From: Nemertoderma westbladi
Lineage: Eukaryota > Animalia > Xenacoelomorpha
DNA: 64,000 nucleotides
Assembly (NCBI GenBank): GCA_032718475.1
Contig: JAUCBJ010007042.1
Span: 50,814 to 114,813 of the forward strand
Direction: 5' to 3'
Part shown: piece after piece, positions 13,143 through 42,487 of the stretch
Layout: each line of letters begins with the position of its first letter
Numbering within the stretch: position 1 is the stretch's first letter
Position numbers and translations under genes: made by a program
Notes under the pieces: model-generated
What the model was told of the DNA's origin: nothing
Seen by the model: only the letters and a program-made list of their open reading frames with translations
Database searches by the model: none

Positions 13143-14325
13143 AGTCTTAATAATGTTTGCCTTCCGGCAAAAATCTCGCAAAAGTTCGAGATATAATTAT
13201 AATTTAACCGAAATACGGTCAAATTAATTGTCAAATAATCAGTTGGTCCAAATGTCAAATAAATTCGCAATGCAATATTGTGAATTTAATGGGGTATATA
13301 GTTATAGCAAATACTAACACAATATTTAAACAAAATATTATTATATAGCTACTATATAATATTAAATACCGGTATAGCACAAAATAACCTTGAATCTAAT
13401 ACAAAATATTCAAAATAAACTTGCCACCCGAATATTTCTAATTTTATATATAGCTCTAATCAACGTAATTTTAATTTCAAATATTATATGTATCCACTAG
13501 CGCGTGGCTACATCTTCGGGTTGCGACTCTCTCTAACTCTCTCTCTAACTTGAGCGATTCAAAAACCATGGCCGGCTAAACCTAAATATCCTAACTAATA
13601 AATTGAGTTCAGCTTCGCAGTTAAACAACCGATAATTTTTTACTGCTTCCACAAACACACTGGCGCCAACAGAACAACTAACCTTGTTTGCTGTGAGATT
13701 CCACGTCCGCGTCCAAAGATTCAGGCCCTTCGCTGATTGCAAACCGAACCCGCAGACCCACACGAACCCCAAACTCAGAAGTTCCGTCTTGCCATGTATC
13801 TCCAGATGGTATAAAATAACTAAGCGGTTACCTAACATACCGGTACAAAACTCTAGAATTTTACAAAATAATTTTGACCGAAACTGAATTCTCGCAAACC
13901 TAGCTAATAATTTTCAAAAAACTTACTAATTACAGTTTGCCCTAAGGCCTAAGGAACTGCTGTATTCGCAATTAGTAAAAACGCACTACCGTACATCCAC
14001 TTTATGCAGTACAGTAAGTAAAACAGTACACCAACCTAACAGCCTAATGATACTGTGTGTGGTACGGCAAAACAAATGTCCTTCTACCGTACGCAGTAAC
14101 AGCAATCAGCCTAATGTACTACTGTACTAGTGTACGCAGCCAGTGAATACAGTAATCTAAACAACAGCCTAAGAATACACTATTGACCGCTGCAAGCAAC
14201 AGCCAATAAAAAACATACCTTACTGTTACGAAGTATCAGTAAATCTAAATCTTCACGGCCTAAGAATATACTCTATGTCCTACTGTACGCGGTAGGCCTA
14301 CAGCAGACAATAACACGTGCTTTAC

Positions 14326-16411
14326 TGTTAAACAAACTACCCCGGCCTAACCAATAAAGACACAAAACTGCAAACTGCTCTATTTATTAGACAGGGCAAT
14401 CAGGAGCGTATTATTGCTAATGTGAGGGGCTGCTAAATACAAAACCGCTACTTACCGTTAGATGGCGCTAACCTGCCGTCCGCTAATATGTTTTACTAAT
14501 TTTCTACCAGTCTACGGCTCCTGCTAATTTCTTGTTCCTTTCTCTACCAATTACTCGATAGAGAGCTAACTGTTCGAATATATGAGCCACGCGGGAATAA
14601 CCAAAACAACAAACCCGAATCGGCTCCCTAAGCTGACTTAAAACGAGTGTGAGAGGTTTTACACTCAGAGTATATTCTTACGCCTAATCTTACTGTTAAA
14701 GTACGCCAATGCCTACGTCTTTTCTAATCGCGAATACTGGGGGTTCCCTAACGGAATGTGTGAATGCGAGAATATTTAAAATAATCAAAGTGGTACAGTG
14801 TTTATTAGGGCTAATACCTATAGTGGGACTAAACTTGTCTGCGGCTGGCTTTAGGCCAGCAAATTACTAATGCGTTTTGCGTACTGAATACTGCTATCTA
14901 GCTTATTGCCCGCTAATTAAAATAACCGCTCAGCGTGAATAGTTTACGGTACTCTAATTATTACCTTAGCTACTCTCCGCTATGCTGCGTACTAATTCTT
15001 AATTTTACTAATTAATTACAGTCACAAATATGTAACAGCCTAAAATACTGTATTACTTTGACCTAATCAGTAATTATTTACAGTAAACTAAGAGATAGAA
15101 ATCAATCAAAGGGAAAAGAGCGCCTATCTAAGCATTCGTAATCTTAGGCACACTTTAGTAACACACCAATCAGCGTCAGCAATCACAGCTCGCAATGCGC
15201 GATTCACAATTGTACAATCCGCAATGCACGCAATTAGCAATTACACAGCACAATATAATAATTCGCAATACTGCAATACATGCAATTCGCAATTGTAAAG
15301 CACGCAGACCTCTCCCGGGTACATCTAGGCTTCCTAACTAACCCAATTCCTGCCCCCCTAATACTAAATAGAGACAAAACCTGGATCATCAGCCCCCTAA
15401 TTACTGTACCAGCGAGCTGCCCCCACGCTACAATGCAAATTGCCCGACCGCAACGGTGACCCCCCGCCAGCGTTGCTCGCCTTTGAATCCTCCGCTCCCT
15501 TCGTCGCTAACCCCCCGATGTGCCCACCGCCCACTGGCGCCTTAGCCCTCCATTATGCTAATAGCTACCGTAGCGGCGCATGCAAATCACAAAGTCTGAC
15601 AGTCTCAGAAATCCCTTAGGATTATTGCGCAGAAAGGAATCACATAGAACCATTAATCAAAGAGTAGAAATCATAGTTCAATTGTAATTAGCAGTAATCG
15701 AAGGAATTATTGAGAAACACAAGCAAGTAATCGCACTAGCAAATCATTTCAAGAAATTAATCAAATTAGCAAATTGCAGAAAAAATAAGTATCAAGAAAA
15801 AACAGCAAGACAGGTGCTAGGGCTAGGTGTCATGTGATGAGTTGGTGAGGCTCTACCGGCACACCGCCAATTTATAGGTGATCCGGATGGGGTGATGCAA
15901 TAGGGTGACTCAATCGCTTTCTTATTGGCTCTCCAGTCCGTGCTAGCACTAGACCAACCTGGAAGCAGCTAGTCCAATAAGGAGGCCGGATTGTAGCCCT
16001 ATTTGCTCCCCTTCCTCGAATTATTACCATATATGGTAATGGTTCACGTCTCTGGCTGCTGAATGGCCAGGACAGCGTCCCTATATGCTAGCCCTACTAA
16101 AGCTAATATCAGCAAGCACGGAATCCAGGGTCCGAATAAACTTACCCTGGAACTATCTACATATTACCTAATACAAAATTACGTAGGTAGGGCTACATAC
16201 TATACAAAATGGATGGATTCAAATATATGGGTGTTTCGATTTCCCTATCTAAATACCACTGCGTTATTATGCCTTATCTAAAATATCATGCTGCACAACG
16301 GACTAATATTACATACAGTATAACGGACTAATATTGCATACTGCATAACGGACTAATATTGCATACTGCATGATGACTAATATTATGGATACAGCGCCAT
16401 ATACCGTAACA
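14326..16411 (-). repeat. 5' LTR of BEL element 1
   Basis: Direct repeat of 375-2460; interrupts the protease-coding frame of element 2 at 16411/16412. Confidence 0.95.
15835..15930 (-). promoter_or_regulatory. Candidate LTR core promoter (CCAAT, TATAAA, initiator)
   Basis: Minus-strand TATAAA at 15876-15871, AGCCAAT ~50 bp upstream, CTCATCA initiator-like sequence ~30 bp downstream. Candidate AATAAA near the LTR end (432-437 in the 3' copy). Confidence 0.45.
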
Positions 16412-19400
16412 CTTCGGCCACCCAATCCTCGACTAATGTGAAGGCAGCTCCACTATCAACCAGCATTAGTGTTGTTACTGATCGATTGCCTTCTCCAATC
16501 ACTCGCACGGGTACTACCCCAAGTAACACCGTTCCTCTCTTCTTCGCCCCTACTGTGCTCGTTGCCATCGTTTGGCCTTTCCTTTGACCGAACTTGACCG
16601 GCTTCTCCTTGCATTCCCTAGCTCTATGTCCACTCATCACACATCGCGAGCAGATCTTATTGCTCGACGCATAATCTATCTGATCTTGCCTAGGTAGCGC
16701 TTGCCAGTACCTGCAGTTCATGGTTTGATGAAGCGCATTTGTATGTAGCTGGCATTTGCTCTTTGGGTCGTAGCCCTCCTTATACAGTGCATCGCGTATC
16801 GCAGCTGCGTTTGTACCAAAGTCCCTACTATTCTTATTGTTTGGATTCGGCCTACTGGACGTACTGGGGTTATATTTATTCGTGTTGTTATTGTTCCCCT
16901 GTCCGTTCCATGGTGTGGTCTTACTTTCGGCTATCTGTGGACTTGCAGTCCCCTGCGTCGCTGCATATGGCAATGATTGCCTGAGCCTCGGTAATGCGTT
17001 TGATGTATTGTGCTCTGGTTTCGGTCTATGGTAATCCGTCTTCGGTCCCTTTCCCAGGCTATCTTCGCTATAGACTGGGTCGGTTATTAGTTCAGCCTCG
17101 TAGTTTAAGAAGCTTGACATTTCTTCTAAACCCGGTTCCACACCCTTCTTGTCTCGAGTGGAGAAAGCGATTTTCCTCCACTTGTTGCGCAGCCAGTTCG
17201 GTAGTGCCTGCGCTATCGTGGTGATGTTATTGGACGCGTTGAGCTCGTATGGCGCGTCTAGCGTCTTCAGCACGATTAGCGCCTTTTCGACTTTGTTAGC
17301 GAACGTCTTAATGCTAACGGGATTATCCTGTAGGCCACCCGATGTTATGCCTCTCAGTGTCTGTCTGATGATCTTGGCCGGGTGCCCGTATTCCCTGTCC
17401 AGTGCCCGCCATGCTGTCGTGAAGCCGCCCTCTATGCCTTGATATTGCCTCACGATGTCGTATGCTGGGCCTCCCGTGTATACTTGCAGATACTTTAGGC
17501 ACTCCGCCTGCGTTAAGTTCTTTGTTAGTATTTCATTACTATACATGCGCCGAAACTGTAGATATTCTTCCGGCCTACTCCCATCGAATTTGAATGGTTC
17601 CACGGGTGGTAACTCGATCCTCGTTTTCAACGCATCGATCAACGTGGCCATCCCCATCGCCTGCGCTTCCAATGGGTTCGATGGATGCTGTATGGTTTCT
17701 CCTGTCTGATGCGGTCCGTCCGTCCTATTTCTTGACTTTCTTTGACTTGGGTATGTCATTGGGGGTAGCGGCCCCCTCCATATTTCTGTATCACACGACC
17801 TATTTTCATCCAAGGGACTCGTTGTTCTTGCTCCTATCGGGGTATATTGTTGATATTGTGATGGGGGAATGTCACCCTGTCCCCCCCCCCCCCACCGGTA
17901 TGTTTGGTACTGGGGTTGATGTTAATATATTGGGGCCCATACACCTATCCGCAATAATTCCCCCCTCCCCTGGGTATATGTTATGTCCCTGCATGCTGTA
18001 GTCATACTGCTGTACTGGTACCGGTATAGGCCTATCAGCTTCTGGCCTACCCGCCGGTATGTATTCCGCGACTTCCGGGTTTAATCCCGTCGTCCGCGCT
18101 ATCCTATCGCCTACATTGCCTCTGTCAGTATGGCCTATGGTATGTGCAGTAAGGCCTACAGTATGTCCTACAGTCCGCATGTGTCGCTCGGGATCGAAGT
18201 TTATTCTTCTCGAATAGTCCTCCCCGCGGCTACCGTATTCTCGATCGGTAGGTATATTCCGTCGGAAAGTTTCTCTTCGACCCCCCCTCTCTACTGTTCT
18301 CGTCTTCGTACCGGTACATCGCGTACCCCTCCATCGGCGCGTAATGCGCCTCGCCAGGTCGCATCTCTCCGGGGCGACGGCAATCTCCCGGAGTCCGACC
18401 CCACTGACTCTCCGTTCTCATCTCGACTACCGACGGCTCGCTATCCGTCCTCGCTCTTCTATCGTTCGCGGCGATACTTCTACTACTGTCTTCTCTTCTT
18501 CTCCTTTCAGTGGAGTATTCCCGCTCGTGAGATCTCTCGTCGACCTCCCGGTTAAACCCCACTGTTCTTCTTCCCTCTTCTGATCGGGCTCGACGCTTCG
18601 TCCGCCCTCTCACGACGTCAACCTGTCTCTCTCTGCTCGGTCGCACGCCGCTGGGGATACTCGCAATCCCCCTATTACTCTCCGTCGCCGGGTGTTGCGG
18701 TTTACCTATTTCGGCCCGCGCATTATCCGTTGACGTCTGTGGGGCACTCTCTGCCCCCCCCCCTTTTCGCCGCTAACTCGCTGTTGTGGGGTTCTTGTAG
18801 CCCCCCCCCCCCCCCCACTCGCCACATCTAACTTCACTATCTCTCACCCCGCTACCATATCCCTCTCTAGTCGACACATCAACCCTACCGCGGTCGGGTC
18901 TATTCACCCCCGCCTCTCCCTCTGCTATTGCGTGGCCTACCAGGCCCTCTACTCCCTGCCTACCAGCTACGTGGCCTACCAGGCCCTCGCTGGGTCTACC
19001 CAACCCAGCCACTCCCTGCCTACCAATTACGTGGCCTACCAGGCCCTCTCTGGGTTGGATCAACCCCGCCTCCTCCGGCCTACCAACTGTACGGCCTACC
19101 AGGCCCCCATCTGCCTGGCCATACACGCCCGACGTGTTCACGTTAATAGCACCCATATTAGAAACGGAATTATTTTGTTCGTTCGAGATAAAATCATTTG
19201 AATTATTTTGCGCGACTACACTATCTGAATTATTTTGTAAATTATTTAAATTATTTGGATTATATTGCATAACTACGTTGTTCGGATTATTTCCTACGTT
19301 AATATTAGAATCGTTCTGATTTAAATTTAAATTACTACCACTAGGCAAAGTATTTCCTGCAATAAAGGTTTGGTTAGAGTTGTCTAATACGGTACTATTA

Positions 19401-21043
19401 ATATTAATGACGTCTACTATAGCATTATTATTACCCCCCCCCCGCCCGTACGGTCACACCAGTTTTGGGTCTGTCGTGCGGTCCCTGTAAGTGGGGTATT
19501 AATAAATGTATCCACGGCCCCTGGCTCCTCGAAAATACTCGAGCCAGCCCCACTCTCAGACGCCCCTATTCGCGCCAGTTCCCGTTCGCGCGTGTGTATA
19601 GCTTTGTACCCTGTAAGCTCACCTTGACGTTTCTCTAATTCTTTTCGCTCACACTCCTTCCTTGCCATTCTCTCCTTACACTCCCGTGCGTCCCGCTCGG
19701 CCAATTCCAACTCTCTTCTAGCCCCCTCCCTTCGTCTCGCCTCACGCTCTTTGCGTTCGTTTTCCTCTCTCGCCTCGCGTTCTTTGCACTCGTTTTCCTC
19801 TCTCGCCTCACGTTCTTTACACTCGCTTTCCTCTCTCGCTACACGTTCCCTGCGTTCGCTTTCCTCTCTCGCTACACGTTCCTTACGTTCCGCCTCACGC
19901 TCTTTGCGCTCATTTTTCTCTCTCGCTACACGTTCCCTACGTTCCGCCTCACGCTCTTCTTGTTCCTTCCTCCCTACTTCCTCACACTCCCTAAGGCTTC
20001 TCGCGGCCCTTTCGGCCCTCTCTCCGGTTTCTTTAATCAATGCCATTTCCCTCTCTAGCAGCACTCTCCCCTCCTCTAACCGTCTACCTACTTCCCTTTG
20101 ACCTTGCTCTATCAAATCGAGACGGTACGTGGCATTTATCTCTCTCACCCGTCTTTCTTTTACGGAGGATGTAGCAGACTTATCGGTTGTGACGGATTCC
20201 CTCCGCCTCCCCGTCCTACTAACTTTCCCCCGCCTCCCGGAACTTCCTCCGACCGACGAGGCCGAATCCTCGGGGTTAACCTCGGGTTCGCCCTCCTCAG
20301 GTCTCTCCCAACCCACTAATTTTACTCCCCGGGCATCGACTAAGTATGGCCCTACGTACACTACGCTAGGTTCCATACCCCTACACCGCCATAAGTCACA
20401 CAGTTCCTCGGCAACCCCTCTCGCTCTCTCCTTGGCCAGTTCTCTTTGCCCGAAGCGCATTAGATAATTAAAGTGTCTATTCGACTCACCTAGTCGTTTC
20501 CTCAGTCTCACCTCGTCTATCTTCGACCCCTCTTTGGCCTCCTTTAGTAGTTTCTGGGTCGCGTTGTAGGCCCGTCGAAGTCGATCAGAAACCCCGACGT
20601 CCTCGTCGCCGACCTCTCTTCCGTCTCTCCGGGTCCGACGTCGTACCGGCGGCCCCACCGTCGCCGTTTCGGTGGGCCGTTCGTCGCCCTCGGCCTGTAG
20701 CTGACCGGCGACATCGGTACCGACATCTCCTCCATCTCTCCGGGTCCGGCGTCGTACCGTCGGCCCCACCGTCGCCGTTTCGGTGGGCCGCTCGTCGCCC
20801 TCGGCCTGTGGCTGGCCGGCGACATCGGTACGTCGACCCACGTCCCGTGTCGACTCGTCTCCTTCTCCCTCCGTCTCGCTCTCTCCTTGCTGCTCGCAGA
20901 CGGCCCCCCTCATCCTGAACTGCCGGATGACCCGTTACCGATGGGTCCGGCATTGTGGGCCTGTACCGTCTGGTCGCGGCCTCGCGGATCGTTAGTTCTT
21001 CGTCCGGGGTCCGCGTCGGCGTCGTCTCTCCCGACTGACTCAT
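16412..21043 (-). pseudogene. Gag and start of protease of a second BEL/Pao element, frameshifted and truncated by element 1
   Basis: Consecutive minus ORFs (21043, 20913, 19348, 18646, 18180, 17813). Coiled coil, PFKFDGS..EYLQF capsid motif, CQLH..H..C and CSRC..GH...C knuckles, protease LVDSGA cut at ...WVAEV by the LTR. Several breaks lie near poly-C runs. Internal ~60-bp (18925-19110) and ~120-bp (20620-20830) coding repeats. Confidence 0.9.
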
Positions 21044-21366
21044 CTCGCTTGTATAGATTGGTGGCTGGTAGTCACTGAGTTTAGCTAGCTAGGGCGGCAG
21101 CTCTGATTCAATTACTAGGGCGTACCAGTCTACCGTTACTACTGTAACACCAATAACTAACACTGAGATAACTGAATGAAATGATTACTGCCAACTGGCT
21201 ATATTGCACGGGTTGGCCTTGTTACTGTACCTAATCGATGCCTTTCCCCCCTCTGATTGGTTGATGTCCCTATTGGCGCCCTTTGGAGTGTTTCCGTTCA
21301 CTCCACCTGTTGTCCCTCTGTTAGGGGTTTGGCCCCTGACCCTTACTGTGTTTCTCCTTCCCATTT

Positions 21367-21480
21367 TGTTAGGGTGACACGAGTTGGTTGGTTACCCAAT
21401 CTCGTGGCCCCCAATATTGCTTAACGGTTGACTTTATGGGTTTGTGTTAGCGGAATTGGATAAGCTAACACTCCCCCCCA
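21367..21480 (-). repeat. Candidate PPT plus start of an LTR of the element 2 family
   Basis: Minus strand reads GCATGGGGGGGAG then TGTTAG... (21470), with CTAACA at 21367. The far boundary is uncertain (21367, 21319 or 21143). Confidence 0.45.
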
Positions 21481-21489
21481 TGCTATCTT

Positions 21490-21780
21490 CCCGCCAACCC
21501 AGTCCGTGTCCGAGTGGCCAATCCTCTCGATGGGCGGCACCCCTCCGAACTCGTCGTCGTCTTCCTCCTCCTCTGGCAGTGGCTCCAACCCCGAACCCCG
21601 GTATCCCGATGGATCCACTATGTCCCTTCCCGCCTTGGCTCTCGCCCGTAGCTCTCCATCCCTCTAGCTCCCTTAGCTTCCTTGGCGGTTGGTCGCCTTC
21701 GGCACCCGCTGGTATGGGCATCGCTTGCAACCCCGACGTCGACTGTTTCGGCGTTCCACCGTCCATCCCAATTCTCGCCC
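21490..21780 (-). repeat. Inverted, slightly diverged copy of 25975-26258 (part of the accessory ORF)
   Basis: The same peptide PKQSTSGLQAMPIPAGAEGDQPPRKLRELEGW... and EEEEDDDEFGGVPPIERIGHSDTDW is encoded on opposite strands at the two sites. Confidence 0.9.
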
Positions 21781-21805
21781 TAGAGACTGGTAATTGACTG
21801 GGGTG

Positions 21806-23544
21806 GCCCAGCGGACTTGTTATCATGGGGCGTGGCACGCCACATTTTCTTAAAAAAGGAAAGATTGTGGCAACACGGGCCGCAGTTTCTGAGCGACAAG
21901 GAGGCCTGGCCGCCGATGAGAAAGGTGGACCCGGACTCAGGAGAGGTAGTGTCAGTAGGAGAAGAGGGAGATTCAGAGGGAGAAGAGATATACTCCTAGA
22001 TGGTGAGGGAGATAAGGGACGTGCAACCTAAATCAGAAGAACTGTGCGATAACCCGACAGATAAACTCCTCAGCTACAGCTCTAGTTGGTATAAGACCAA
22101 GAAATTAGTGGCGTACTGGAGAGCCTTTGGGAATTTCCTCGCGGGAGTTGGCAAAGACAAGAAGATCAGGACAACCATAGATCTGGAAGGAGCGGCCAAG
22201 GCAGTCATCCGCTATGAACAACGGAAGAACTATGGCGACGAGGTGGAACGCGTCGGTAACCAACAGCACCTTCGACGGGACAGCGAGCTGATCACGCTGT
22301 CGCCACAACTTAATGACGACCGGATTCTAGTAATGAATTCTAGGGTGGGATACAACAACAGCATAATCGTTCCACCGAAACCCATCATCATTCCCACAGG
22401 ATCGCCAATAGTCCACCAGATTATCTGGGACTCCCATAAGTCGATATTGCACGGGGGCACCAACAGAACTCTCACGGAGATAAGGAGGACCTTTTGGGTC
22501 AAGCAGTTGAGGAAGAAGGTAAAAGCGGTAGTGGGGCAGTGCCAGACCTGCCGACGAGCGAAGAAGGAGCGAGCCATACAAGAGATGGCGCCACTACCGG
22601 CGAGTAGAGTAAGACAGCACGACCCGCCATTTACACATTGCGGTGTGGACATGTTCGGGCCGATAAAGATCAAGGTGATGCGGCACACGGAGAAACGCTA
22701 CGGTATCATCTTCGTATGTAACAACACGCGGGCGGTAGGGATAGAACTCGCCCAAGATGCAACCACATCAGCATTTATTAATGCATTAGAAAGATTCAGA
22801 GACCGCAAAGGTGGGACGATCGCAGTAATGTACTCCGACAGCGGAACCAACTTTGTGGGAGCAGAGAATGAGATGGCAGAGGCCTTGGACATCTTGGAAG
22901 GGGAGGAAGTCAGGGCGGCCATGAGACGACGACAAGTAAAGTGGGAGAGAAGGACGCCGTATGCACCACATACACTAGGATGCGTCGAGAGATTGGTGGG
23001 CAGTTCAAAGCGTCTAATGACGAAGCTAATGAACACCCACATGGTCACTGAGGACGTCTTAAGGACAGTGCTTGCGAAGTGCGAGGGGATCATTAATAGC
23101 AGACCGCTATATCCGGAGAATGATGACCCTGAGTCATTAGATGTGCTGACACCCAGCCATTTTCTAATGGAAAGGCCAGCGACCATCGACATGCGGGGTG
23201 TAGACCCAGATGACATACACTCCCGCCAGAGTTGGAAAGTCGCTAAAGCAATAAGCGCAGAGTATTGGAGGAGGTGGGTAGAAGAATACCTACCCACGCT
23301 CCATAAAAGAAGCAAGTGGAGGAAGCCGAATAGGGAGTTAAGAGAGGGAGATCTCGTAATCGTTACGGATGATACTATCATCAACAACCAATGGCGGTTG
23401 GCGAGAGTTGTAGGCACTTACTCCGACGAGGACGGAAGAGTCCGATCGGTAGAAGTGCGGATAGGTGGTAAGATAGGTGCGAAGGACAGAAAAACCTACA
23501 GGAGAGCTGTAGGGAAATGCTGTCTGTTAGAAGGGGCACCTTAG
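21806..23544 (+). pseudogene. BEL/Pao pol 3' part (end of RNase H plus integrase) with one in-frame TAG at 21997-21999
   Basis: PADLLSWG..LWQHGPQFL; H..H/CQTC; VDMFGP; SDSGTNF; CVERLV; INSRPL; LTPSHFL; C-terminal WRLARV...DGRVRSV. Confidence 0.92.
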
Positions 23545-23659
23545 TGGAGTTAGAGAAGAGTTTAGTCGTCCAAGTTTTGGACTGAGGGGGGTGGGATTGA
23601 GGGCGAGACGCCCTTCCCACACATAAAAAATAGAAAATAAAAATAAAATAATAGTACAT

Positions 23660-24240
23660 AGTAGGTACGCAGTTAGTAGGCAGAAGTTAGTCAGTAAGAA
23701 GGTACGTAGTACCTAGAGTTAGTTAGTTAGTTAGGAGGTACGTAGTACCTAGAGTTAGTTAGTTAGTTAGGAGGTACGTAGTACCTAGAGTTAGTTAGTT
23801 AGTTAGGAGGTACGTAGTGCCGTTAGTTAAGAGAAGAGTTAGAGGGTACGTAGTACCGCTAGTTAGAGAGTTAGAGGGTACGTAGTACCGTTAGTTAGTT
23901 AGAGAGTTAGAGGGTACGTAGTACCGTTAGTTAGAGAAGAGTTAGAGGGTACGTAGTACCGCTAGTTAGAGAGTTAGAGGGTACGTAGTAGCGTTAGTTA
24001 GTTAGAGAGTTAGAGGGTATGTAGTACCGTTAGTTAGAGAGTTAGAGGGTACGTAGTACCGTTAGTTAGAGAGTTAGAGGGTACGTAGTACCGTTAGTTA
24101 GAGAGTTAGAGGGTACGTAGTACCGTTAGTTAGAGAGAGAGTAAGAGTTAGAGGGTACGTAGTACCGTTAGTTAGAGAGAGAGTAAGAGTTAGAGGGTAC
24201 GTAGTACCGTTAGTTAGAGAGAGAGTAAGAGGTAGAAGGG
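23660..24240 (+). repeat. Tandem repeat (~30-40 bp units) between integrase and accessory ORF
   Basis: Units of GTTAGAGGGTACGTAGTACCGTTAGTTAGAGA, each with the mini-hairpin GGTAC-GTA-GTACC. Confidence 0.9.
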
Positions 24241-24701
24241 TATATAATATAGATATTAATTAGCAGTTAGTAGCGAGAGGGGGGCGTATGAGTACAGTTG
24301 GATAGATCGTGTAGGCCGCGCGACATATACTGCTGTACTGCACAGGCCCACAGAGTAGGCCAGAATGTGGATTAGGAGATAGAATAATCCATAGGCAGTA
24401 GCAAGTGGTAAGACAGTAGGGTTAAAATAAATTAGAATAAATAAGAAAAAGGGCTAAAGAATTACAAATTATGGTAACAGCGATAAGAAAATTCTGGAAC
24501 ATAATTAAAGTAACAGACAGAAATTGTAAATTAGGCTCATTTATTAGCTAGGGAATTAAATAGTAAGAATTTAGATTAAAAGGCGCCACTAGATAGGAAA
24601 TAGGCCATTATCAGACCGTACAGAACATCTTAGCTACATCACTCATCTGTATTGCGCCTTGGTAAGGCACCACCTTACAGGTGAGCGAGTGAGTGTTCGG
24701 A

Positions 24702-26869
24702 ATGGCGAGCAAACTGATCAGAAAGAGAAAGGCGGAGTCAGGAGGAAAGGAGATACTGGTGGATTTCACCAAGAGGCATCCGGAAGAGAAGACAAGAGGA
24801 TATTACGAGCGGTTGGAAAAGGGTCACGCGGCACGAGCGCTGCAGGACCACTTCAGGGAGATGCACGAGCAGCGGCTGGTCGGGACCTACAGGACGCCGT
24901 CGCTGGACAACGCGATCTTCCAACACTTCCACTACGTGGTAAAAGGGGAAGAGGAGAAGTTCGGGATTCCGAAGTACCCGAGGGAGTCGCCGAAGAAGGA
25001 TTGGAAGAGGTTCATAGAGTCCATCAACAGGGGAGGATATATGATCCTAGACGACGAGGGAACCGTGGAAGACGAGGTGGGTTCGAGACGAGGATCGCGG
25101 GGTCGGCCAGGACCATACTCCTGCATTTGGCCGCGCCAAATGGGGACATTTTCTTATTCGACCTAGGAACGTATGGGAAGAAGGACGGGCCGAAATTAAA
25201 CCGGTTGCCGAAAGCGGTGCAAGTCCTGGTAAGAGAGAAGTCGACGACGAAGGTGGGATCGGCGATCCGCGACGACGCGGAAAGAATCATCGGTCGGGAC
25301 ACCCCCAACCTTTTGGACACGCAGACGGTCTTCATGGCTATGACAGCGACAGACGGGTTGGGAGTGGTGGAGAACACAGGCCAGTGCGGAGCGGTGGCGA
25401 TGGGCCAGCTATTGGGGCTCGTGTGCCACAAACCGACGGACTGGGGAAAGTTTAGAGAAGAATACGGAGCAGAACTAGCGAACTCGCTAAAGTGGGGAGC
25501 GAGACCAGGAAAGCAGGAGGTATATCAATTCCGCAGAGGAGCGATAAAGGTATATCAGAAGCGATATATCCTGCAGGAAGATTGGATGATGATAAGTTTG
25601 CTTAACTTATTCATGATCGTGGTTATCGAGAGGGAACCAGCGGCATTTCTGTTATCGGGATCACCCCTAAGCTACAGGAGAGCCTTTAAAACGGCCTTCG
25701 ACGGTCTGGTAGACCACCCGGGGCTGAAGGGCGAGTCGGTGTACTACAACAGCCGACATCTGATAGACGGGGAGACAGATACGCCGTATCAGAGATGGGA
25801 GCAGCTAGAGACGGATAGACGAGAAGCAAAGCGACTGGAAGAAGTCGCTAGACGGGAGAGGATAGAAGCAGAGGAGAGGGAGGAGGAGGCCAGGACGCAG
25901 AGTTACGGCTTCGAGGAACAGGCAGGCTTAGACGAACTTCGTTGGACTTCATCAGGGAGTTCGGGGGAGTCTCGCGAGAATTGGGATGGACGGTGGGATC
26001 GCCGAAACAGTCGACGTCGGGGTTGCAAGCGATGCCCATACCAGCGGGCGCCGAAGGCGACCAACCGCCAAGGAAGCTAAGGGAGCTAGAGGGATGGAGA
26101 GCTACGGGCGAGAGCCAAGGCGGGAAGGGACATAGTGGATCCATCGGGATACCGGGGTTGGAGCCACTGCCAGAGGAGGAGGAAGACGACGACGAGTTCG
26201 GAGGGGTGCCGCCCATCGAGAGGATTGGCCACTCGGACACGGACTGGGTTGGCGGGAGGGTGGTGACGGCCAGTGGGGCGAGGGCCTTCTGGGATAGACC
26301 CGACAAGCGGGCCTGGGTGCACGAGGAGCCGGCGATGGATTTCGCGGGGAGCAATATCAGGTTGGGCGAGCAACCGGGGACGGCACCACGGGTAGTATTC
26401 GGGGAGACGATGCCCGAGAGGGGCGGAGAGATCGACGTAGACAGGGACACCAACGTGCAGAAGTTCGCCTACCAGCGACTCCACAGACCGCGGAGATCGC
26501 TTGGGACGAAAGACGACGTGGGGCGGGAGACATTGGTACTCGGTTGCGACTACTGTGGGAGACAGACCCACCAGGAAAGGAGTTGTTTGTACCGGTTCCA
26601 AAAGGGAACCTTTTGTCTCTACTGCCGCGAGTCGAGCCACAGGATGGGGGCGTGTCCATGGTTGCATAACCGATGTCCGAAGTGCAACTTTCGGGGACAC
26701 TACGGACGCCAGTGCGACTGGATGGACGACGAAGAGAAGTTCAGAAGATTCGAGGAGTGGGCCGACGTCGGGGCCATGACGCGCCAGCGCATGAAGGCCC
26801 AGGAGTTCAAGTGGGGTTTCTTCCTTATCAATCAGGAGGCTCACATGGAAATCGTGGATCCCGTCACAA
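24702..26869 (+). CDS. Accessory gene of BEL element 2: DEDDy (WRN/EXD/Mut-7-like) 3'-5' exonuclease + coiled coil + three CCHC knuckles; two frameshifts, 3' end replaced
   Basis: ExoI ILDDEG (25044-25061); LLHLAAPNGDIFLFDL; LPKAVQVLVREKSTTKVGSAIRDD (ExoII); NLLDTQTVF; YQKRYILQED (ExoIII-like). Then CDYCGRQTHQERSC, CLYCRESSHRMGAC, CPKCNFRGHYGRQC. Pieced together from ORFs 24693, 24659 and 25942. Confidence 0.75.
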
Positions 26870-27098
26870 TTATCAAAAAAGAAAGACAGGCATCTGGCTG
26901 TTGAACTATTAGTAGTTGAACAGTTGAATTAGTACGATAGAGCTTGTTGTTGTTGCGAACCCTGAGGATGCCCCGAGGGGCGAAATTAATTGTTAATTGA
27001 ATTATATTTTATTGATATTATACAGTACTGCATTATATGGGCGTGTAAAACTCCAACTGAAATAGTTTTTATCATTAAGTTACAACAAAACGTATTAA

Positions 27099-27809
27099 GG
27101 GGGGGGTACACCATTTTCGGACAACTGTTCGATTTATCACTCTCAGCGTTTCAAAATTGTTTGATTTTGGCTAAAATTTGGCATATAGGTACCTAAGATG
27201 CTATTATACATGACAGGTCAGAAAATTTTTTTTTTCGCTATTTAATATTAGTTAATACTAGTTAACAACAAAAAAAACGTGATTGCGCTTAAAACCCTAA
27301 GGCTTTTACAGTTTTGAATCTAATAACATGAAAGTTTTTTTATATGATAGATCAAAGATGGGGCAACATAACTTTCAGGCGAAATTTTGTTAAAATAATT
27401 CTGCACCGCTAGGTGGCGCTGCAAATTTATGCAAATTTTTAGGTTTTTTATAAATAGTATTAAATTTTATTAACAAAAAATTTCGAAAAGTTGCCTGATA
27501 CTTTTATGCAGGGTGGCTATCTAGACACCCACAGGAAGTTTCAGACTAATTACTCAAAAATTGTAGAAGTAGTAGGGTTTTGAAGTTGACAATTTCATGA
27601 AAAAAATATTTGGAGATAATCGACCTTTCATTATACATAGTAATAGTAATTTCAATAGGATTCCGTAAATGGAAATTTACATAACTTGAAAACTAATTAA
27701 GAGCTATTAAATAGCGGTTTTCAGATTTGGACACACCATGCAATGGTGCATTATAGTAGACCATAAAAAAAAATCCGACATATTTTGGACCAAAATGGTG
27801 TCCCCCCCC
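27099..27809. mobile_element. Non-autonomous Kolobok-like DNA transposon
   Basis: TTAA on both sides (27095-27098, 27810-27813); imperfect TIR GGGGGGGG(T)ACACCATTTT. Purine termini with a TTAA TSD fit Kolobok rather than piggyBac. Abuts and truncates a LINE RT fragment. Confidence 0.75.
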
Positions 27810-27813
27810 TTAA

Positions 27814-28260
27814 ACTGTCATATATCTTGGCTAGAGTTGACATTATGCTAATTCCGCGATAATTGCCACAGATTAACCTGTTTCCGGATTTAAATAAAAT
27901 AACCAATTTTCTAACTACCCAAGTTGCTGGGAATAATGTGCTTGTAAAAATTACATTTAATATGAATAATATTGTTAATAGCCATGACCCTGGAAGTCTT
28001 GTTAAAAGCCCTGGGCTGATACCAATATACGCCTTACTGGTGTTCAGATCAGCGAGAACTTCAGCGAACTCGCGTTCCGTAAATTCATCATCTAATAGCG
28101 GGATATATGGTGCATCCGTTATATCCACATCTCCTACATCTACCACATCCTTGGGATTTAGTAGAGCTTGGAAATGGGATTTGAACTCTAAGTCGTCCGG
28201 TTTCTTAGTGCTCAGTTCCTGATCACAAGTTGACAGATTCCCATTCAAATCTAATGCGTT
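27814..28260 (-). pseudogene. Non-LTR retrotransposon (LINE) RT fragment
   Basis: LDDEFTERE...KAYIG...FPATW...LFKSG...NYRGISIMSTLAKIYD, typical of RT domains 0-2. Confidence 0.8.
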
Positions 28261-29342
28261 CCATATTGATTTATATACATATCCTATACATTGCTATCAG
28301 CTGATGAACTACTTGTGAATTAGTAATTGCACTAATAATGGTGGCCTTAGAGTTGATGCACCCTATCCATTGGCTGCCTGTATCACGCCACTTTCCCTGG
28401 GCAATATTAGGCAATATTAAATCAAAACAAAGCAAATTTGAGGTCAATCAATTCTGCAATTTTGTGAAATTAAATTATTAATACTCCTATACTTTGTGAG
28501 TAATTCCAGAACGTTAATCAAATAATCAAACCAAAAATTTGATTAAACTAGCTACTGGAGTAAAAGATCATATAACTAAACATTTTAATGCTAAATTTGT
28601 TAATAATTACCAACGTAATTACTGTTCTAGAATAAATAATGAGAAATCAACAGAGAAATCTTCTAAATCATTGATTGGATAAATATTTAATTATCCACAT
28701 TTATGGAAGTTTCATTGGCTGTTCTTTATTGTCCGCAAATGCGGATATTAAAGACTTTATAATCCACACTTTTACGGATAATAAAAGGGATAATTTAAAG
28801 AATAATTATTTATTACATGGGAAAATAGTAGAACTTTTTTTCACTATTCTCGAGGCATTTTGATAAAGGGTCGAGAGAATATTTAAAAAAAAAATTTTAT
28901 TTTTCCTTTGTAATACGTAATTTTATTCTTAAATTGATACTTTTTTGTTGCTTTAATTCTTTAATAAAACGTACAGCGATATAGTGGTACAAAATCAATT
29001 GAACTGTAGTATTTTACAATATTGCTTCCATAGTTACTGCGATTCAAATTACTGTAATCTTCAACTTGTGATGCTGTCTTTCTCAATGTTAAATAAATAA
29101 ATTTTATTTTAATAAATTTTACAAATAACAATTTAGTTAATTTAATTAAGGTGACCGACCATTACCGGACCCCAATATATTATTTTATTTATAAAGCTAC
29201 TATTCTGAAATTTTAACACAATGATCTGTGATAATTTACTATGAAATTTAAGTAGGCCTTATGGATAGCTTCGTAAATCCATTCACACATTCACTCATAG
29301 TGTCTGCGCGGCGTACTCCAAAACGGAACTTAATATCGGTGT

Positions 29343-29512
29343 GCGGACACTCCCCCCCCCCCCGGACACTTCCCCCCCCCCCCCGGACAGTTCCCCCCGT
29401 TCATGTAGGACACTTCCCCCCCGGACAGTTCCCCCCGCTCAAGAAGGACACTTCCCCTCAGACACTTCCCCCCCAGACACATCCCCCCCGCGGACACTTC
29501 CCCCCCGACTGT
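29343..29512. repeat. C-rich minisatellite (CGGACACTTCCCCCC)n
   Basis: About 8-9 degenerate units, resembling a transposon subterminal array. Confidence 0.75.
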
Positions 29513-30033
29513 TCTTAACTTCGCACATTCGTATTTTTCATTTTGTAAGGTAAACGGACCGCTTATATCCAGATAAGTTGAATCCTATTTTCCTTTCGTA
29601 GCTCAGAAAGTGATCTTTTGCATCCCGATTTTACATTTTATATCCAAATTTTATTTATGGGTTTTATCAATGCAATTACATCGTATTGTTTGCTAATGTT
29701 TAAACAATTAATTAGATGACCTATAAATTCCATCCCCCGAATGATATACTGTTTTTATTAACTAATACCTCCCCAGGGTAAAATCGACATGCGTGTCGAC
29801 CTGTATTCTGTGTTCAGCATTGCATATTGATAAATTAATTAAATTTCCTGGTTACTTGCAATATTTGTAATAGGATTTTGTTGAATTATATAATATTGTA
29901 GTCATTTATATATTAATTTGGTTAACATTCAATACAGCTCCTACTTTAGGTATAGTCAATTTATTATCTGATAAAACAAACATTAATTGATTATTTAAAA
30001 TGGTCTCAAAGCTATTGCAACTGTAATTAATGG

Positions 30034-30285
30034 AGGCAGGGGGGGGGGGGGGGGGGACTGGACGCAAATCCCGCCTTGCAAATTAATATCCCGCCTCAAT
30101 GTTAAATTCTCAATTTAGGGAAAGGAGCAGGTTACAGTGGCACGTTATTTTAACCAAAACAATAAACTAAGCACAATAGAACAGGTTACAGTTTTATTTT
30201 TGAGAATAATCAGCGGTTATTTGCGTCGAATTTCCCCTGGAGAGGGGGGATGAATTTTTATTGCGTCCAGTTTCCCCCTTTTCTG
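30034..30285. mobile_element. MITE with ~9-bp TSD (Mutator-like), copy 1
   Basis: Inverted ends GGGG(AA)ACTGGACGCAA / TTGCGTCCAGTTTCCCC; flanks AATTAATGG / AATTAATGA; homologous to 33847-34103. Confidence 0.7.
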
Positions 30286-31279
30286 AATTAATGATGTAAT
30301 GTAAATGGTTTTTGTAATGTAAAACCATTTACATTACATCATTAATTACAGTTGCAACAACTCAACTCAAAGTTTTAAAATATAAACATTTCTTTCCTCC
30401 GTCAGTTTCTAGTTTTTTTTATCATGCTGTTGTCACATTCGCAACAAAAAATTCTAAGAATTAGTTTGGCCGATAAATAATTTATATGGAATCAGGGCAG
30501 ATATTAGGAATTACTGTTGATTGGCTGAGATTTCTATGAGGTTACCTAGCAACTGTGATGCATTCTGTGGGTGTTCATTAATCTTGGCAGTAGAACTGTG
30601 GAATGCCTATGTGGTAGTTAGTTTCCCAGCAACAAGTGATACAGCTTACAAGAATTCATTTCATCAGCCAATCTTATAACAACTTACTGGGAAGGATGCA
30701 GTTGTATTTTACGGTAGGGTGGCCGTTTATATATTGTAATATACCTTTGTACGCTTTGTTATTAAGCCAGCTACATTCAATGATTGTATTGTTAATTGAA
30801 AGTGATATATATTAATGTATTGCTCACCTAATTATATACCACATAAATTAATATTTATTTATTATCATTATTATGGTATATTAATTAATTGTGTGTTACC
30901 TTTTACAGTATTATCAGACTAGGCTACAACCGTGTTCCTTTCAAATTATTGTACCTTTCAGCTCCTGATAATGCCTTGCTCAATGTTAAATAACTCTAAG
31001 TTCTGAAATATATAAAGAAAACCGACCAATTACAGGCATCCAATATTGGATATTATTAAGTTCCATTTTGGTATAGACCGTGCACATTAAGTTTTAATGA
31101 GCTTTAAGTGTGGATGTAGTCATTTGCTTGCAATTTCGTGAAATTCTACCATAAAAATGTTATTGCCGTTAATTCCTTAAAACGCCGATGTAAGTTCGAG
31201 AGTGTTTGCGATCTCAGCGATACTAGTCACCGGTACCGGCTGACGGGGGTGGTTGTACTGTATAATTCTTAACTTTATA

Positions 31280-32866
31280 GAAGTAAAAGTGTCTGAGTCT
31301 GTACTTCCAGATATTCCCATTGGCGATATCTCCTTTGCAGAAATGAAGGCTGCTGCAAAGAGCATTAAGACCAATCGTGCCAGTGGAGTAGATGGTGTTC
31401 CCCCTAAGGTCTTAAAATACCTGAGTGGTTAAAGCTCATCTATCACATCATAGTAGAAATGTACCGAACAACAAGAGTCCCACAAGAAATGAAAACAAAT
31501 AAGTTGGTGCCAGTTCCCAAGAAGGGCAACCTAACACTCTATGGTTCTTTTCGGGGAATCTCATTGATCTCGATTGCTGCAAAGCTATACAATAGGATTC
31601 TATTAAATCGCATCAGGGATCCCATTGACAGACTGCTCCGTGGAAATCAGAATGGGTTCCGTAAAGGTCGTGGGACCATGGAGCCCATTTTGGCACTTAG
31701 AAGGATAATTGAAGAGTTATCAAAAAAGAAAGACAGGCATCTGGCTGTTATCTTTGTTGACTTCTTCAAGGCCTTTGATTCAGTCTCTCGCTCACGTATG
31801 TTCAGCATACTTTCATTATATGGGATTCCTAATGAAATTATTGCAGCAATCAGATCAGTATACGATGGTTCGACAACATTTGTCTCTACTGTTGACGGTG
31901 ACACAGAACCATTTGAAGTGTTATGGGGCGTCCTCCAGGGAGACACACTTGCCCCATTCTTGTTCATAATTGTGGTTGACTATATTCTACGCATGTCCTT
32001 AGATCATCATAATGATGATGGGGTGATGATAATTCCACCTACTGGCTCCAGAAGTCGAGGAAATCCTGCCAAGTACCTAACTAATCTAGACTTTGCTGAT
32101 GACTTAGGAACACTCTCAGAATCACTAGAGGGAGCCCAACGGCTCCTCAGCTCATTATAACATGCTGCTTCTAGTGTTGGTCTTTTTATTAACTCCAGAA
32201 AGACCAAAATTTTGACAGTTAACTTTGAAAGTCCTCAGCAAGTCTCTGATCGGATGAGCATAAGCTCACAAGATGGTATGCTTGAGCATGTGGACGACTT
32301 CTGTTACCTGGGACCATGGATCGGGAAGTCAGGTGAGGACCTTCGAATACATAAAGGAAAGGCATGGGCAGCCTTGAATAGGCTTTCCAGGATTTGGAAG
32401 TCACCGAGAATTAATCAGAAACGTAAGGTTCGATTATTTAGAGCAGCAGTAGTTCCAGTACTCCTCTATGGGAGTCCATGGAGGTCTATAACTGCTGAGG
32501 ACACCAAATCTCTGGATGGCACATTCACAAGAATGCTACGCCGGGTTCATTGTGTCAAGTACAATGCACACATCTTCAACCAGACACTATATAACATTGG
32601 AGGTGTCTCATTGGTTCCCCCAAGCTTGGCACTAGAACAAAATCGCCTCCGCTTTACAGGACATTGCTTTCGCCGTGAAGACCTGCCAGTGCATAATCTT
32701 GCACTTTGGCAGCCTCATGGAGTGAATAAGGCCTGAAGATGCGGATGATCTAGCAAATGTCATGGCTGATAGGGAGTTGTGGCGGCGCAATTTTGTCGAC
32801 AAGCCGGCACAGCATTCTTAATAATGCAGCTGCAATGCAGCATGCCGATCCTAGTAGTAGTAGTGG
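31280..32866 (+). pseudogene. 5'-truncated, degenerate LINE (RTE-like) with RT domain and (TAG)n tail
   Basis: RASGVDG, FRGISL, QNGFRKGR, FVDFFKAFDSV, GVLQGDTLAP, DFADD, FCYLG; stops and frameshifts; ends CCTAGTAGTAGTAG. Confidence 0.9.
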
Positions 32867-34103: not shown

Positions 34104-34255
34104 CGATTTTGGGATACATCCGGGCTAAAAGTCACTATTTAAGAATAAAATAATTGACTTTACAGTACTGAATGCCTATGTAATTAATAATTTATTATAA
34201 ATGAAGCTTCTATTTACTTAATAAACTTAAACATCCCAATTAAACGAGCATCACA

Positions 34256-35092
34256 ATGGCTGTAAAACAGAGCAGCGGAGCCGGCTGTCTAAAAGCTCTT
34301 CTATTCTTCTTTAACTTCGCCTTCTTCCTTCTCGGTTTCGCAATCCTTGGCGTCGGTGTCTGGCTCACCTTAGACGTCGGACGACCTGAAATGCTCCAAC
34401 TATTAAACAGTGCGTTGGTCTCCAACTTAAAGTTTATCCTCATTGCCGTCGGCGGATTCATCACTGTAGTCGGTTTCCTCGGCTGCTGTGGAGCTATCAT
34501 CGAAAACAAGGTGATGCTTCTTATATTCGCGATTATAGTGATTGTGATTCTTGTAATAGAGTTGGTAATTCTTATAGTGGTAGCGGTAAACAGCGATCTA
34601 ATAGAATCGCCCATGAAGGATTACATGAACACAACATTAATAACAGATTACTCACCATCGGATAAACCTACAGACAACACGGCCTGGGATGTAACCCAGT
34701 TATCGTTACAGTGCTGTGGAGTAGAATCTTATACCAACTGGAAGGATTATAACTCTAAGTTCTGGCAGTATAACGAGGCCTCTACTGCTGTCCCTAAACA
34801 CGAATGGCCTCCGAGCTGCTGTCAATTCGACCCGGTTCCTCCAATAGCCGATATTATCTCTGGATCTTGGGTTATTTCCAGCGCTGAACAAACATTGTGT
34901 TACCGGAACCCGCCCCTGGTTAATCAACAAGGTTGTTACACGGCTCTTAAGGACTACATCAACAACCACCTTCTCATTATAGGAGTTATCAGCGGCATTG
35001 TCGGGGCTTTAGAACTTTTAGCTATTGTTTTCTCTATATGTCTGGTAAGATCGTTGAGTCACGCATACATTGGACCAAACAGCAAGGAATGA
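34256..35092 (+). CDS. Tetraspanin family protein (278 aa, single coding exon)
   Basis: Four hydrophobic segments; CLKALLFFFN start, GFLGCCGAI, large loop QCCG, PPSCC, QGC; AATAAA at ~35121 and ~35266. Confidence 0.95.
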   Translation: MAVKQSSGAGCLKALLFFFNFAFFLLGFAILGVGVWLTLDVGRPEMLQLLNSALVSNLKFILIAVGGFITVVGFLGCCGAIIENKVMLLIFAIIVIVILVIELVILIVVAVNSDLIESPMKDYMNTTLITDYSPSDKPTDNTAWDVTQLSLQCCGVESYTNWKDYNSKFWQYNEASTAVPKHEWPPSCCQFDPVPPIADIISGSWVISSAEQTLCYRNPPLVNQQGCYTALKDYINNHLLIIGVISGIVGALELLAIVFSICLVRSLSHAYIGPNSKE

Positions 35093-40260: not shown

Positions 40261-40498
40261 TTCCTTCACTTAATTACCTTCATACTGCACACTACTGTAC
40301 ATATTTTATAAGTAGTGTGTGGATAATACTGCTCTTTTCTCACTAACACTTTTGCAGACTTTTTATTTCTCCGTAATATAAAGGCCAGTAATACTGTATA
40401 TCCCGCACTTTCCCCCGCAATTAGGTATAGGTGGAGCTCCACCCAACTCAGACGCATCACGCGAGTCCGTAACGCTGGTTCGTCATGTGGACACGTCG

Positions 40499-42487
40499 CG
40501 CGTTAGGTGGACGCGTTAGTCGAACGCGTTAGGTGGACGCGTTAGTCGAACGCGTTAGGTGGACGTGTTAGTCGAACGGGTTAGGTGGACGCGTTAGTCG
40601 AACGCGTTAGGTGGACGCGTTAGTCGAACGGGTTAGTCGAACGGGTTAGGTGGATGCGTTAGTCGAACGCGTTAGGTGGACGCGTTAGTCGAACGCGTTA
40701 GGTGGACGCGTTAGTCGAACGCGTTAGGTGGACGCGTTAGTCGAACGGGTTAGGTGGACGCGTTAGTCGAACGCGTTAGGTGGACGCGTTAGTCGAACGG
40801 GTTAGTCGAACGGGTTAGGTGGACGCGTTAGTCGAACGCGTTAGGTGGACGCGTTAGTCGAACGGGTTAGTCGAACGGGATAGGTGGACGCGTTAGTCGA
40901 ACGCATTAGGTGGACGCATTAGTCAAACGGGTTAGGTGAATGCGTTAGTCGAACGGGTTAGTCGAACGGGTTAGGTGGACGCGTTAGTCGAACGCATTAG
41001 GTGGACGCGTTAGTCGAATGGGTTAGGTGGACGCATTAGTCGAGCGCGTTAGGTGGATGCGTTAGTCGAACGGGTTAGGTGGACGCGTTAGTCGAACGCG
41101 TTAGGTGGATGCGTTAGTCGAACGGGTTAGGTGAACGCGTTATAGTCGAACGGGTTAGTCGAACGAGTTAGGTGGACGCGTTAGTCGAACGGGTTAGGTG
41201 GAAGCGCTAGTCGAACGCGTTAGGTGGATGCGTTAGTCGAACGGGTTAGGTGGACGCGTTAGTCGAACGCGTTAGGTGGATGCGTTAGTCGAACGGGTTA
41301 GGTGGACGCGTTAGTCGAACGCGTTAGGTGGATGCGTTAGTCGAACGGGTTAGGTGAACGCGTTAGTCAAACGGGTTAGTCGAACGGGTTAGTCGAACGG
41401 GATAGGTGGACGCGTTAGTCGAACGCATTAGGTGGACGCATTAGTCAAACGGGTTAGGTGAATGCGTTAGTCGAACGGGTTAGTCGAACGGGTTAGGTGG
41501 ATGCGTTAGTCGAACGCATTAGGTGGACGCGTTAGTCGAATGGGTTAGGTGGACGCATTAGTCGAGCGCGTTAGGTGGATGCGTTAGTCGAACGGGTTAG
41601 GTGGACGCGTTAGTTGAACGCGTTAGGTGGATGCGTTAGTCGAACGGGTTAGGTGAACGCGTTATAGTCGAATGGGTTAGTCGAACGAGTTAGGTGGACG
41701 CGTTAGTCGAACGGGTTAGGTGGAAGCGCTAGTCGAACGCGTTAGGTGGATGCGTTAGTCGAACGGGTTAGGTGGACGCGTTAGTCGAACGCGTTAGGTG
41801 GATGCGTTAGTCGAACGGGTTAGGTGGACGCGTTAGTCGAACGCGTTAGGTGGATGCGTTAGTCGAACGGGTTAGGTGAACGCGTTAGTCAAACGGGTTA
41901 GTCGAACGGGTTAGTCGAACGGGTTAGGTGGACACGTTAGTCGAACGCGTTAGGTGGATGCGTTAGTCGAACGGGTTAGGTGAACGCGTTAGTCAAACGG
42001 GTTAGTCGAACGGGTTAGTCGAACGGGTTAGGTGGACGCATTAGTCGAACGCATTAGGTGGATGCGTTAGTCGAACGGGTTAGGTGGACGCGTTAGTCGA
42101 ACGCGTTAGGTGGATGCGTTAGTCGAACGGGTTAGGTGAACGCGTTAGTCAAACGGGTTAGTCGAACGGGTTAGTCGAACGGGTTAGGTGGACGCATTAG
42201 TCGAACGCGTTAGGTGGACGCGTTAGTCAAACGGGTTAGGTGAACGCATTAGTCAAACGGGTTAGTCGAACGGGTTAGTCGAACGGGTTAGGTGGACGCG
42301 TTAGTCGAACGCGTTAGGTGGATGCGTTAGTCGAACGGGTTAGGTGAACGCGTTAGTCAAACGGGTTAGTCGAACGGGTTAGTCGAACGGGTTAGGTGGA
42401 CGCATTAGTCGAACGCGTTAGGTGGACGCGTTAGTCAAACGGGTTAGGTGAACGCGTTAGTCGAACGGGTTAGGTGGACGCGTTAGT
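40499..42487. repeat. ~2-kb satellite of alternating 13-bp monomers
   Basis: GTTAGGTGGACGC alternates with GTTAGTCGAAC(GC/GG); variant blocks are duplicated at higher order (e.g. ~40860-41390 recurs at ~41390-41920). Confidence 0.95.

Follow-up and report, generated by a model that had tools for sequence, protein, structure and literature searches.

A putative DEDDy exonuclease with CCHC zinc knuckles as a probable third gene of an abundant BEL/Pao retrotransposon family

DEDDy ORFs in rotifer retroelements, which the first-pass annotation of the present locus had named as known, are indeed described in the available text of the rotifer papers (PMC5408684, PMC6431247). According to the same sources and one further paper, rotifer gypsy elements gained DEDDy ORF3s at least twice, and such ORFs are common to Athena elements (PMC5408684, PMC6431247, PMC5718144). 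The main text of the rotifer paper contains neither 'CCHC' nor 'zinc' and states that the DEDDy ORFs carry no coiled-coil domains (PMC5408684). According to the available text of PMC6338049, which cites the rotifer work, the accessory domains known from LTR elements include a DnaQ-like exonuclease. For BEL/Pao elements, the third genes given in the ICTV profile are only env-like (PMC8742986); the same holds for the accessible sections of a 2011 BEL/Pao survey, where 'exonuclease' occurs 0 times (PMC3118150), and the word is absent from a 2026 env survey. In a cellular setting, deletion of the CCHC array of Trypanosoma brucei RNase D (TbRND) is reported to lower RNA binding and cleavage (PMC7797062, available text). 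The earlier remark that no BEL element with an exonuclease-knuckle fusion was known holds in one respect, since no BEL/Pao exonuclease was found in the accessible text of the literature searched (subscription journals and Repbase lying outside its scope), but the design itself is known from the trypanosome enzyme. On the side of host defence, no transposon-encoded factor against the piRNA pathway was known to a 2019 review, as far as its available text goes (PMC6719617).

In this work we analysed one window, i.e., the whole stretch of 64,000 nucleotides, which has the character of animal-like, repeat-rich DNA (Table 1). Two BEL elements meet in it: an intact one splits a second one just past the latter's protease motif (16463), and this insertion cuts the gag/protease region of the second element. 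The intact element is young, and its flanks show no matching target duplication; its own 238-aa frame behind its integrase (4089-3373) gave no Pfam, PHROGs or NCBIfam match. In the second element, DUF1759, Integrase_H2C2 and DUF5641 all score above the Pfam cut-off, so that BEL-type gag and integrase domains are present, and its integrase shares 38% identity with that of the intact element. Of the pol order (protease, reverse transcriptase, RNase H, integrase), the window shows the protease motif at 16463 on the minus strand and an RNase H tail ahead of the integrase, the reverse transcriptase lying outside the window. A TGG at 21127 is a candidate for the primer-binding site (tRNA-Arg or tRNA-Gly in BEL/Pao), and no second LTR of this element was found within the 64-kb window. 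Elsewhere in the window, an uninterrupted tetraspanin frame (34244-35092, plus strand, Pfam E 5e-50) represents a single-exon gene or a retrocopy amid repeats, and satellites occupy 40357-42487 (13/26-base units) and 43663-64000 (long 146-147-base units with higher-order repeats). An Rfam search over 12000-32000 returned miRNA-like hairpin matches only, all below threshold.

Table 1. Features of the window that bear on the two BEL elements and ORF3.
Feature	Position	Strand	Evidence or remark
Intact BEL element	375-16412	-	LTRs 2087 bases, 100% identical; 2799-aa gag-pol frame
Second BEL element, gag and protease start	16413-21043	-	ATG 21043; several frames; DUF1759 E 2.4e-11 (Pfam)
LTR of second BEL element, ~340 bases	21134-21470	-	TG start at 21470; depth above internal regions; inner end approximate
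Polypurine tract (PPT)	21471-21479	-	Purine tract beside TG at 21470
Inverted partial second ORF3 copy, joined to PPT region	21489-21788	-	Alignment and contig depth
Inversion junction and broken RNase H tail	21789-21999	+	Depth dip, loose contig ends at 21788
BEL/Pao integrase frame (zinc finger, core, DUF5641)	22000-23544	+	DUF5641 E 1.7e-24; Integrase_H2C2 E 9.1e-13
Tandem array, 32-42-base units, between integrase and ORF3	23685-24242	+	TRF
ORF3 leader, untranslated; possible splice acceptor ending 24680 (inferred)	24243-24701	+	Sequence and contigs
ORF3 piece 1: basic N-terminus, uncharacterised region, ExoI D-x-E (25047-25061)	24702-25094	+	
ORF3 piece 2: rest of DEDDy-like domain, ExoII (25250-25276), ExoIII (25556-25585), charged helix (25790-25897)	25100-25972	+	
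ORF3 piece 3: acidic/Gly-Pro linker and three CCHC knuckles; ends at 26853	25978-26853	+	
LINE piece, 33 bases, foreign to BEL element	26870-26902	+	Identical to 31717-31749

The three overlapping plus-strand frames that had been reported behind the BEL integrase are all present (24693-25166, 24593-26080 and 25852-26904), and the ATG of ORF3 at 24702 lies 1158 bases past the integrase stop at 23544. Their joining through two frame breaks also stands, but the other copies move the breaks from about 25080 and 25960-26000 to about 25096 and about 25973. A length difference from the window copy accounts for 59-90% of the depth at 25096 in three runs and for 27-37% at 25973 (main row), where it is seen in organism B as well; among the rows listed (12 of 30), these are the only two positions within ORF3 with such differences. 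The inverted ORF3 copy in the window likewise differs in length at the second break (~25973). The length differences of the other copies at 25096 and 25973 suggest that both breaks are likely faults of the window copy. The ORF end had been placed at 26869, which is wrong: family sequence stops at 26853, where the contigs diverge. Beyond this position, 24 contigs in 4 runs (7, 4, 12 and 1) continue with different letters; ORF3 is therefore cut short in the window copy, and its stop at 26904 is supplied by the LINE piece. Reading 24702-26853 with X at both breaks gives 716 residues, in agreement with the proposed ~720 aa, but this figure is a lower bound because the family sequence runs past 26853 in other copies. 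Judged from the sequence, the window ORF3 is likely a copy broken twice and truncated. As an observation on the flank, the LINE piece is an exact copy of LINE reverse-transcriptase sequence and resembles a templated repair patch.

The exonuclease motif series was located as described, with LDDEG at 25047, LLHLA at 25118, IFLFDL at 25148, KVGSAIRDD at 25250, NLLDTQ at 25307 and QKRYILQEDW at 25556. The charged coiled coil that had been noticed behind it corresponds to a helix-like segment of 36 residues, 23 of them charged, and the three CX2CX4HX4C knuckles lie in one frame with starts at 26545, 26614 and 26674. The knuckles are beyond chance, as none of 2000 sequences made by shuffling the bases here had two or more such motifs; just two further CX2CX4HX4C motifs occur elsewhere in the window, each of them in a gag frame, and the Pfam knuckle families gave matches on ORF3 below cut-off only. 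Each of the three ORF3 pieces shows a coding-like pattern, in which GC has its minimum at codon position 2 and its maximum at codon position 3. Env-like features were not found in the part of ORF3 in view: the N-terminus is basic and has no signal-peptide-like start, and the best 19-residue hydropathy mean, a borderline 1.63, falls inside the last nuclease helix, the C-terminus past 26853 being outside view.

No exonuclease family reached cut-off when the ORF3 pieces were compared with Pfam, PHROGs and NCBIfam. Using 25100-25789 as query, we obtained 0 matches in the PDB by sequence, 0 of 1476 candidates (longer proteins) and 0 of 299 at E 1 (proteins near its length) in a 5.8-billion set, 0 of 245, 18 and 185 stretches of metagenome, viral and prokaryote contigs, respectively, and one phage match at E 3. 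Seven matches at E ≤0.001 in a 1.84-billion set were dismissed; the three of the seven that were examined are internally repeated proteins matching over short stretches. The blank library searches are partly due to the first break, which parts ExoI from the rest of the domain. We therefore report targeted comparisons with PF01612-type reference domains that were gathered independently of the query (61 rows below 55% identity, from 106). The 61-row profile scored 14.5 bits against the X-read ORF3 (HMMER, E 8.7e-7 for a single comparison, which would be ~0.02 if scaled to Pfam size), with the local match confined to the middle, residues 128-220. On the exonuclease region it gave 15.6 bits, where the highest of 2000 shuffles reached 6.4, and ORF3 came top of the 126 window ORFs (11.8 versus -0.2 bits for the next). 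A profile of 39 bacterial rows gave 10.4 bits for this region and at most 5.8 for any of 2000 shuffles; with an 18-row WRN-like profile alone, one shuffle outscored the real sequence. In hhalign the local comparison reached a probability of 88% (score 43.3, with no more than 20.9 in 60 shuffles) and the end-to-end comparison 80% (34.8 versus 4.8 for shuffles), its 165 columns reaching from ExoI to ExoIII; smaller profiles gave 23-34% (14-row subset) and 2.5% (10 rows).

The end-to-end alignments place the ORF3 D-x-E on the ExoI D-T-E column, KVG...D on ExoII and Q-x2-Y on ExoIII, at 11-22% identity to the reference rows. The ExoI Asp-x-Glu is kept, and ORF3 also has the ExoII Asp, the Trp and the ExoIII Gln and Tyr that are invariant in 36/36 rows; at ExoIII, Tyr is retained and a Glu stands in the usual Asp column, with an Asp one residue on. 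A structure model from the single sequence had a pLDDT of 33. A model guided by 35 DEDDy rows had a pLDDT of 71 and superposed on WRN exonuclease with Z 10.0 (rmsd 3.1 over 133 residues) and on TbRND with Z 8.5; being built from DEDDy rows it is circular, and it speaks for compatibility with the DnaQ fold only. Foldseek with the guided model against PDB and viral structures gave no match at E 0.001, the top rows being exonucleases. The DEDDy-type assignment of the first-pass annotation is thus supported by the targeted profile with its shuffle controls but by none of the library searches. We consider ORF3 highly likely to be homologous to DEDDy exonucleases, and its nuclease is probably active, a prediction tempered by the Glu in place of the usual ExoIII Asp. 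In three unrelated proteins of the reference search (P0043, P0046 and P0041) PF01612 is joined to CCCH zinc fingers, i.e., fusions of exonuclease and zinc finger recur.

Next, we examined the linkage of ORF3 to the BEL element. The inverted partial ORF3 copy that had been said to run directly into a PPT and an LTR start was confirmed (21489-21778 versus 25974-26257, 96.6% over 291 columns): the fragment leads into the purine tract, read 21479-21471, and then the TG at 21470. At this junction the ORF alignment extends to 21489 and the PPT-side contig of organism B to 21493, an overlap of 5 bases (21489-21493) as expected from a deletion inside one element. Twelve contigs of another run part from the window sequence at 21489 and, on visual inspection, go on along ORF3; the ORF3-PPT junction is therefore a rare deletion form and not the common one. 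The simplest history would be two head-to-tail elements with a common LTR, the first internally deleted, and an inversion reaching from inside the ORF3 of the first to the RNase H of the second. Such a history would place ORF3 between integrase and PPT in an element of at least 12.9 kb, from which we infer the order LTR-gag-pol-array-ORF3-PPT-LTR over at least 12.9 kb. An assembly fault is a possible source of the rearranged locus. No contig spanning integrase, ORF3 and LTR was found in the runs compared over 20800-23720 and 24250-27300, and an integrase search returned one metagenome contig, whose 1459 bases do not reach into its surroundings. The proposal that ORF3 is internal to the BEL element is favored by its position, by the read depth and by the ORF-PPT-LTR junction, while the rearranged locus and the lack of a contig with the whole order weaken it; on balance ORF3 quite probably belongs to the element. 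A lower-copy piece lies past ORF3 at 26930-27088 (plus strand) and carries a hammerhead-core-like motif (26962-26985) with indistinct flanking stems and no Rfam match. A Penelope-like origin of ORF3, prompted by this motif at 26962, was rejected because depth drops ~30-fold between ORF3 and this piece and because the sequence of other copies departs from that of the window at 26853.

Six sequencing runs from 4 studies match part of 22000-26869, and four of them (at most 3 samples) were compared with the window. Over 24250-27300 the three organism A runs yielded 7974, 4399 and 4608 contigs and the organism B run 7. In one run the depth of ORF3 (9,000-90,000) is comparable in magnitude to that of gag (22,000-52,000) and integrase (39,000-119,000, high up to 23641), the LTR is higher (85,000-197,000), and the flank past 26902 falls to ~2,000; these are summed contig depths and not copy numbers. 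Thousands of contigs at 90-99% identity indicate a large family, in which copies often differ by 5-10%. Pieces of LTR, integrase and ORF3 are all present in the organism B run, the ORF3 pieces being gap-free over 164, 236 and 339 bases. Among the differences listed between the window copy and most others, 7/21 are silent in ORF3 and 12/16 in the integrase (Fisher p 0.02), a comparison made at unequal thresholds and with 40 rows shown per table (431 and 257 in total). As the ORF3 rows are near-fixed, most of them are changes private to a dead copy, and the sequence comparison gives a hint that ORF3 may be less constrained than the integrase.

We favor, by a modest degree of belief, the reading that ORF3 is an extra env-position gene of a many-copy BEL/Pao family, coding for a predicted DEDDy (RNase D/WRN-type) exonuclease with three CCHC knuckles. 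It would be expressed from its own, possibly spliced, RNA; the knuckles would grip RNA and pass its 3' end to the nuclease, which would act by two-metal catalysis. The substrate would lie inside the element's own ribonucleoprotein and would foremost be RNA 3' ends, with element transcripts, primer tRNA pieces and small RNAs paired with them as candidates; the trimming of guide RNAs by trypanosome RNase D offers an analogy. ORF3 is likely accessory, i.e., useful to the family and dispensable in single copies. A more specific version, in which the knuckles pick anti-BEL small RNAs and the exonuclease destroys them and thereby allows the very high copy number, is unlikely; its targets would be piRNA precursors, siRNAs, or tRNA fragments blocking the primer site. 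Mature piRNAs carry a 2'-O-methyl at the 3' end, which makes precursors or tRNA fragments likelier targets than the piRNAs themselves.

The same gene and fold could instead serve as an RNA-binding adaptor with dead or weak catalysis, comparable to Egalitarian or EXD1, which would bind element RNA or a host factor of silencing or transport but would not cut. The Glu for Asp and the long insertions around ExoIII would be in keeping with this, the charged helix and the three knuckles would fit such a role, and Maelstrom and EXD1 are inactive DEDD derivatives that still bind RNA (PMC5408684, available text). ORF3, however, retains the ExoI Asp and Glu, the ExoII Asp and the ExoIII Tyr and has an Asp right after the ExoIII Glu, and rotifer ORFs with an Asp-to-Glu change were read as possibly active in the same source; we regard the adaptor as rather unlikely. 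If the exonuclease is active, its substrate could also be DNA in reverse transcription, where it would clear cDNA 3' ends of mismatched or untemplated bases and so aid the copying of an unusually long element. Single-stranded DNA is also a DEDDy substrate (PMC5408684, available text), WRN exonuclease is among the best structural and sequence neighbours, the inferred length of at least 12.9 kb compares with 4.2-10 kb for Belpaoviridae (PMC8742986), and the DEDDy domains of Dada transposases are thought to process 3' ends (PMC3706591, available text). Yet ORF3 is separate from pol and unfused to it, the knuckle array suggests RNA by analogy with TbRND (PMC7797062, available text), and the 5-10% divergence of many copies indicates no special fidelity, copy age aside; we regard cDNA editing as unlikely.

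It is quite improbable that ORF3 is a captured piece of a host gene or an unrelated repeat, carried in or beside the element as neutral, decaying cargo. Such cargo would account for an ORF3 that is broken twice and truncated here although the integrase frame stays open, for the mostly non-silent differences and for the rearranged locus, and rotifer extra ORFs show no clear departure from neutrality in the available text of PMC5408684. Against it, the length differences at 25096 and 25973 are as expected from copies unbroken there, and the organism B pieces are gap-free and the base pattern coding-like. A chance likeness to exonucleases, with some other alpha/beta domain joined to knuckles (e.g., a second gag-like or LINE ORF1-like RNA chaperone), would explain why all library searches were blank and why the single-sequence model reached a pLDDT of 33 only, and LINE ORF1 proteins commonly bear CCHC arrays of three (PMC4120745, available text). 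But six motifs are correctly ordered and spaced and the scores are far over those of the shuffles and of all other window ORFs, so that we hold a chance likeness to be very improbable.

Compared with WRN exonuclease, EXD2, Mut-7 (Nibbler), EXD1 and Egalitarian (PF01612), ORF3 shares the motif series and the predicted fold, at an identity to the reference rows of just 11-22%. To our knowledge, the partner domains of these host proteins are absent from ORF3. The element resembles Belpaoviridae in its DUF1759 gag, DUF5641 integrase tail, LTR, PPT and third-position gene; in contrast, the third gene described for Belpaoviridae is env-like, whereas the part of ORF3 in view has no signal-peptide-like start and at most a borderline hydrophobic stretch, and the inferred length of the ORF3 element exceeds 10 kb (PMC8742986; PMC3118150, available text). 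Dada DNA transposons of Laccaria and Ectocarpus also bear a DEDDy exonuclease, but there it is inserted within the DDE transposase of a DNA transposon and forms no separate ORF (PMC3706591, available text).

TbRND (PDB 7c42; PMC7797062, available text) has, like ORF3, a DEDDy domain followed by a CCHC array, with knuckles spaced by 23, 23 and 18 residues (His positions) versus 23 and 20 in ORF3. It differs in being a cellular mitochondrial enzyme with four knuckles and a 28-residue linker, the gap between nuclease and knuckles in ORF3 being ~300 residues, and the likeness is likely a convergence. The bdelloid Juno and Vesta elements (Ty3/gypsy) and the Athena Terminons come close in arrangement, as they carry a separate RNase D-like DEDDy ORF behind pol in the env position; one catalytic Asp is replaced by Glu in the rotifer ORFs as in ORF3, and exonuclease activity is putative in both (rotifer papers, available text). 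Compared by description, ORF3 departs from the rotifer ORFs in that its carrier is a BEL/Pao element and in that a charged helix and three CCHC knuckles are added. The DEDDy capture by BEL/Pao is likely independent of the rotifer one. A second capture, knuckle-fused and kept in a very abundant family of two organisms, raises the possibility that retroelements repeatedly profit from a 3'-end nuclease, and it bears on the question whether enzymes encoded by animal transposons are used against small-RNA silencing. The fused knuckles, missing in the rotifer ORFs, make substrate choice approachable in vitro as for trypanosome RNase D. In the literature available to us DEDDy cargo had been described only in other transposon groups; what would be new here is such cargo with a CCHC array in BEL/Pao.
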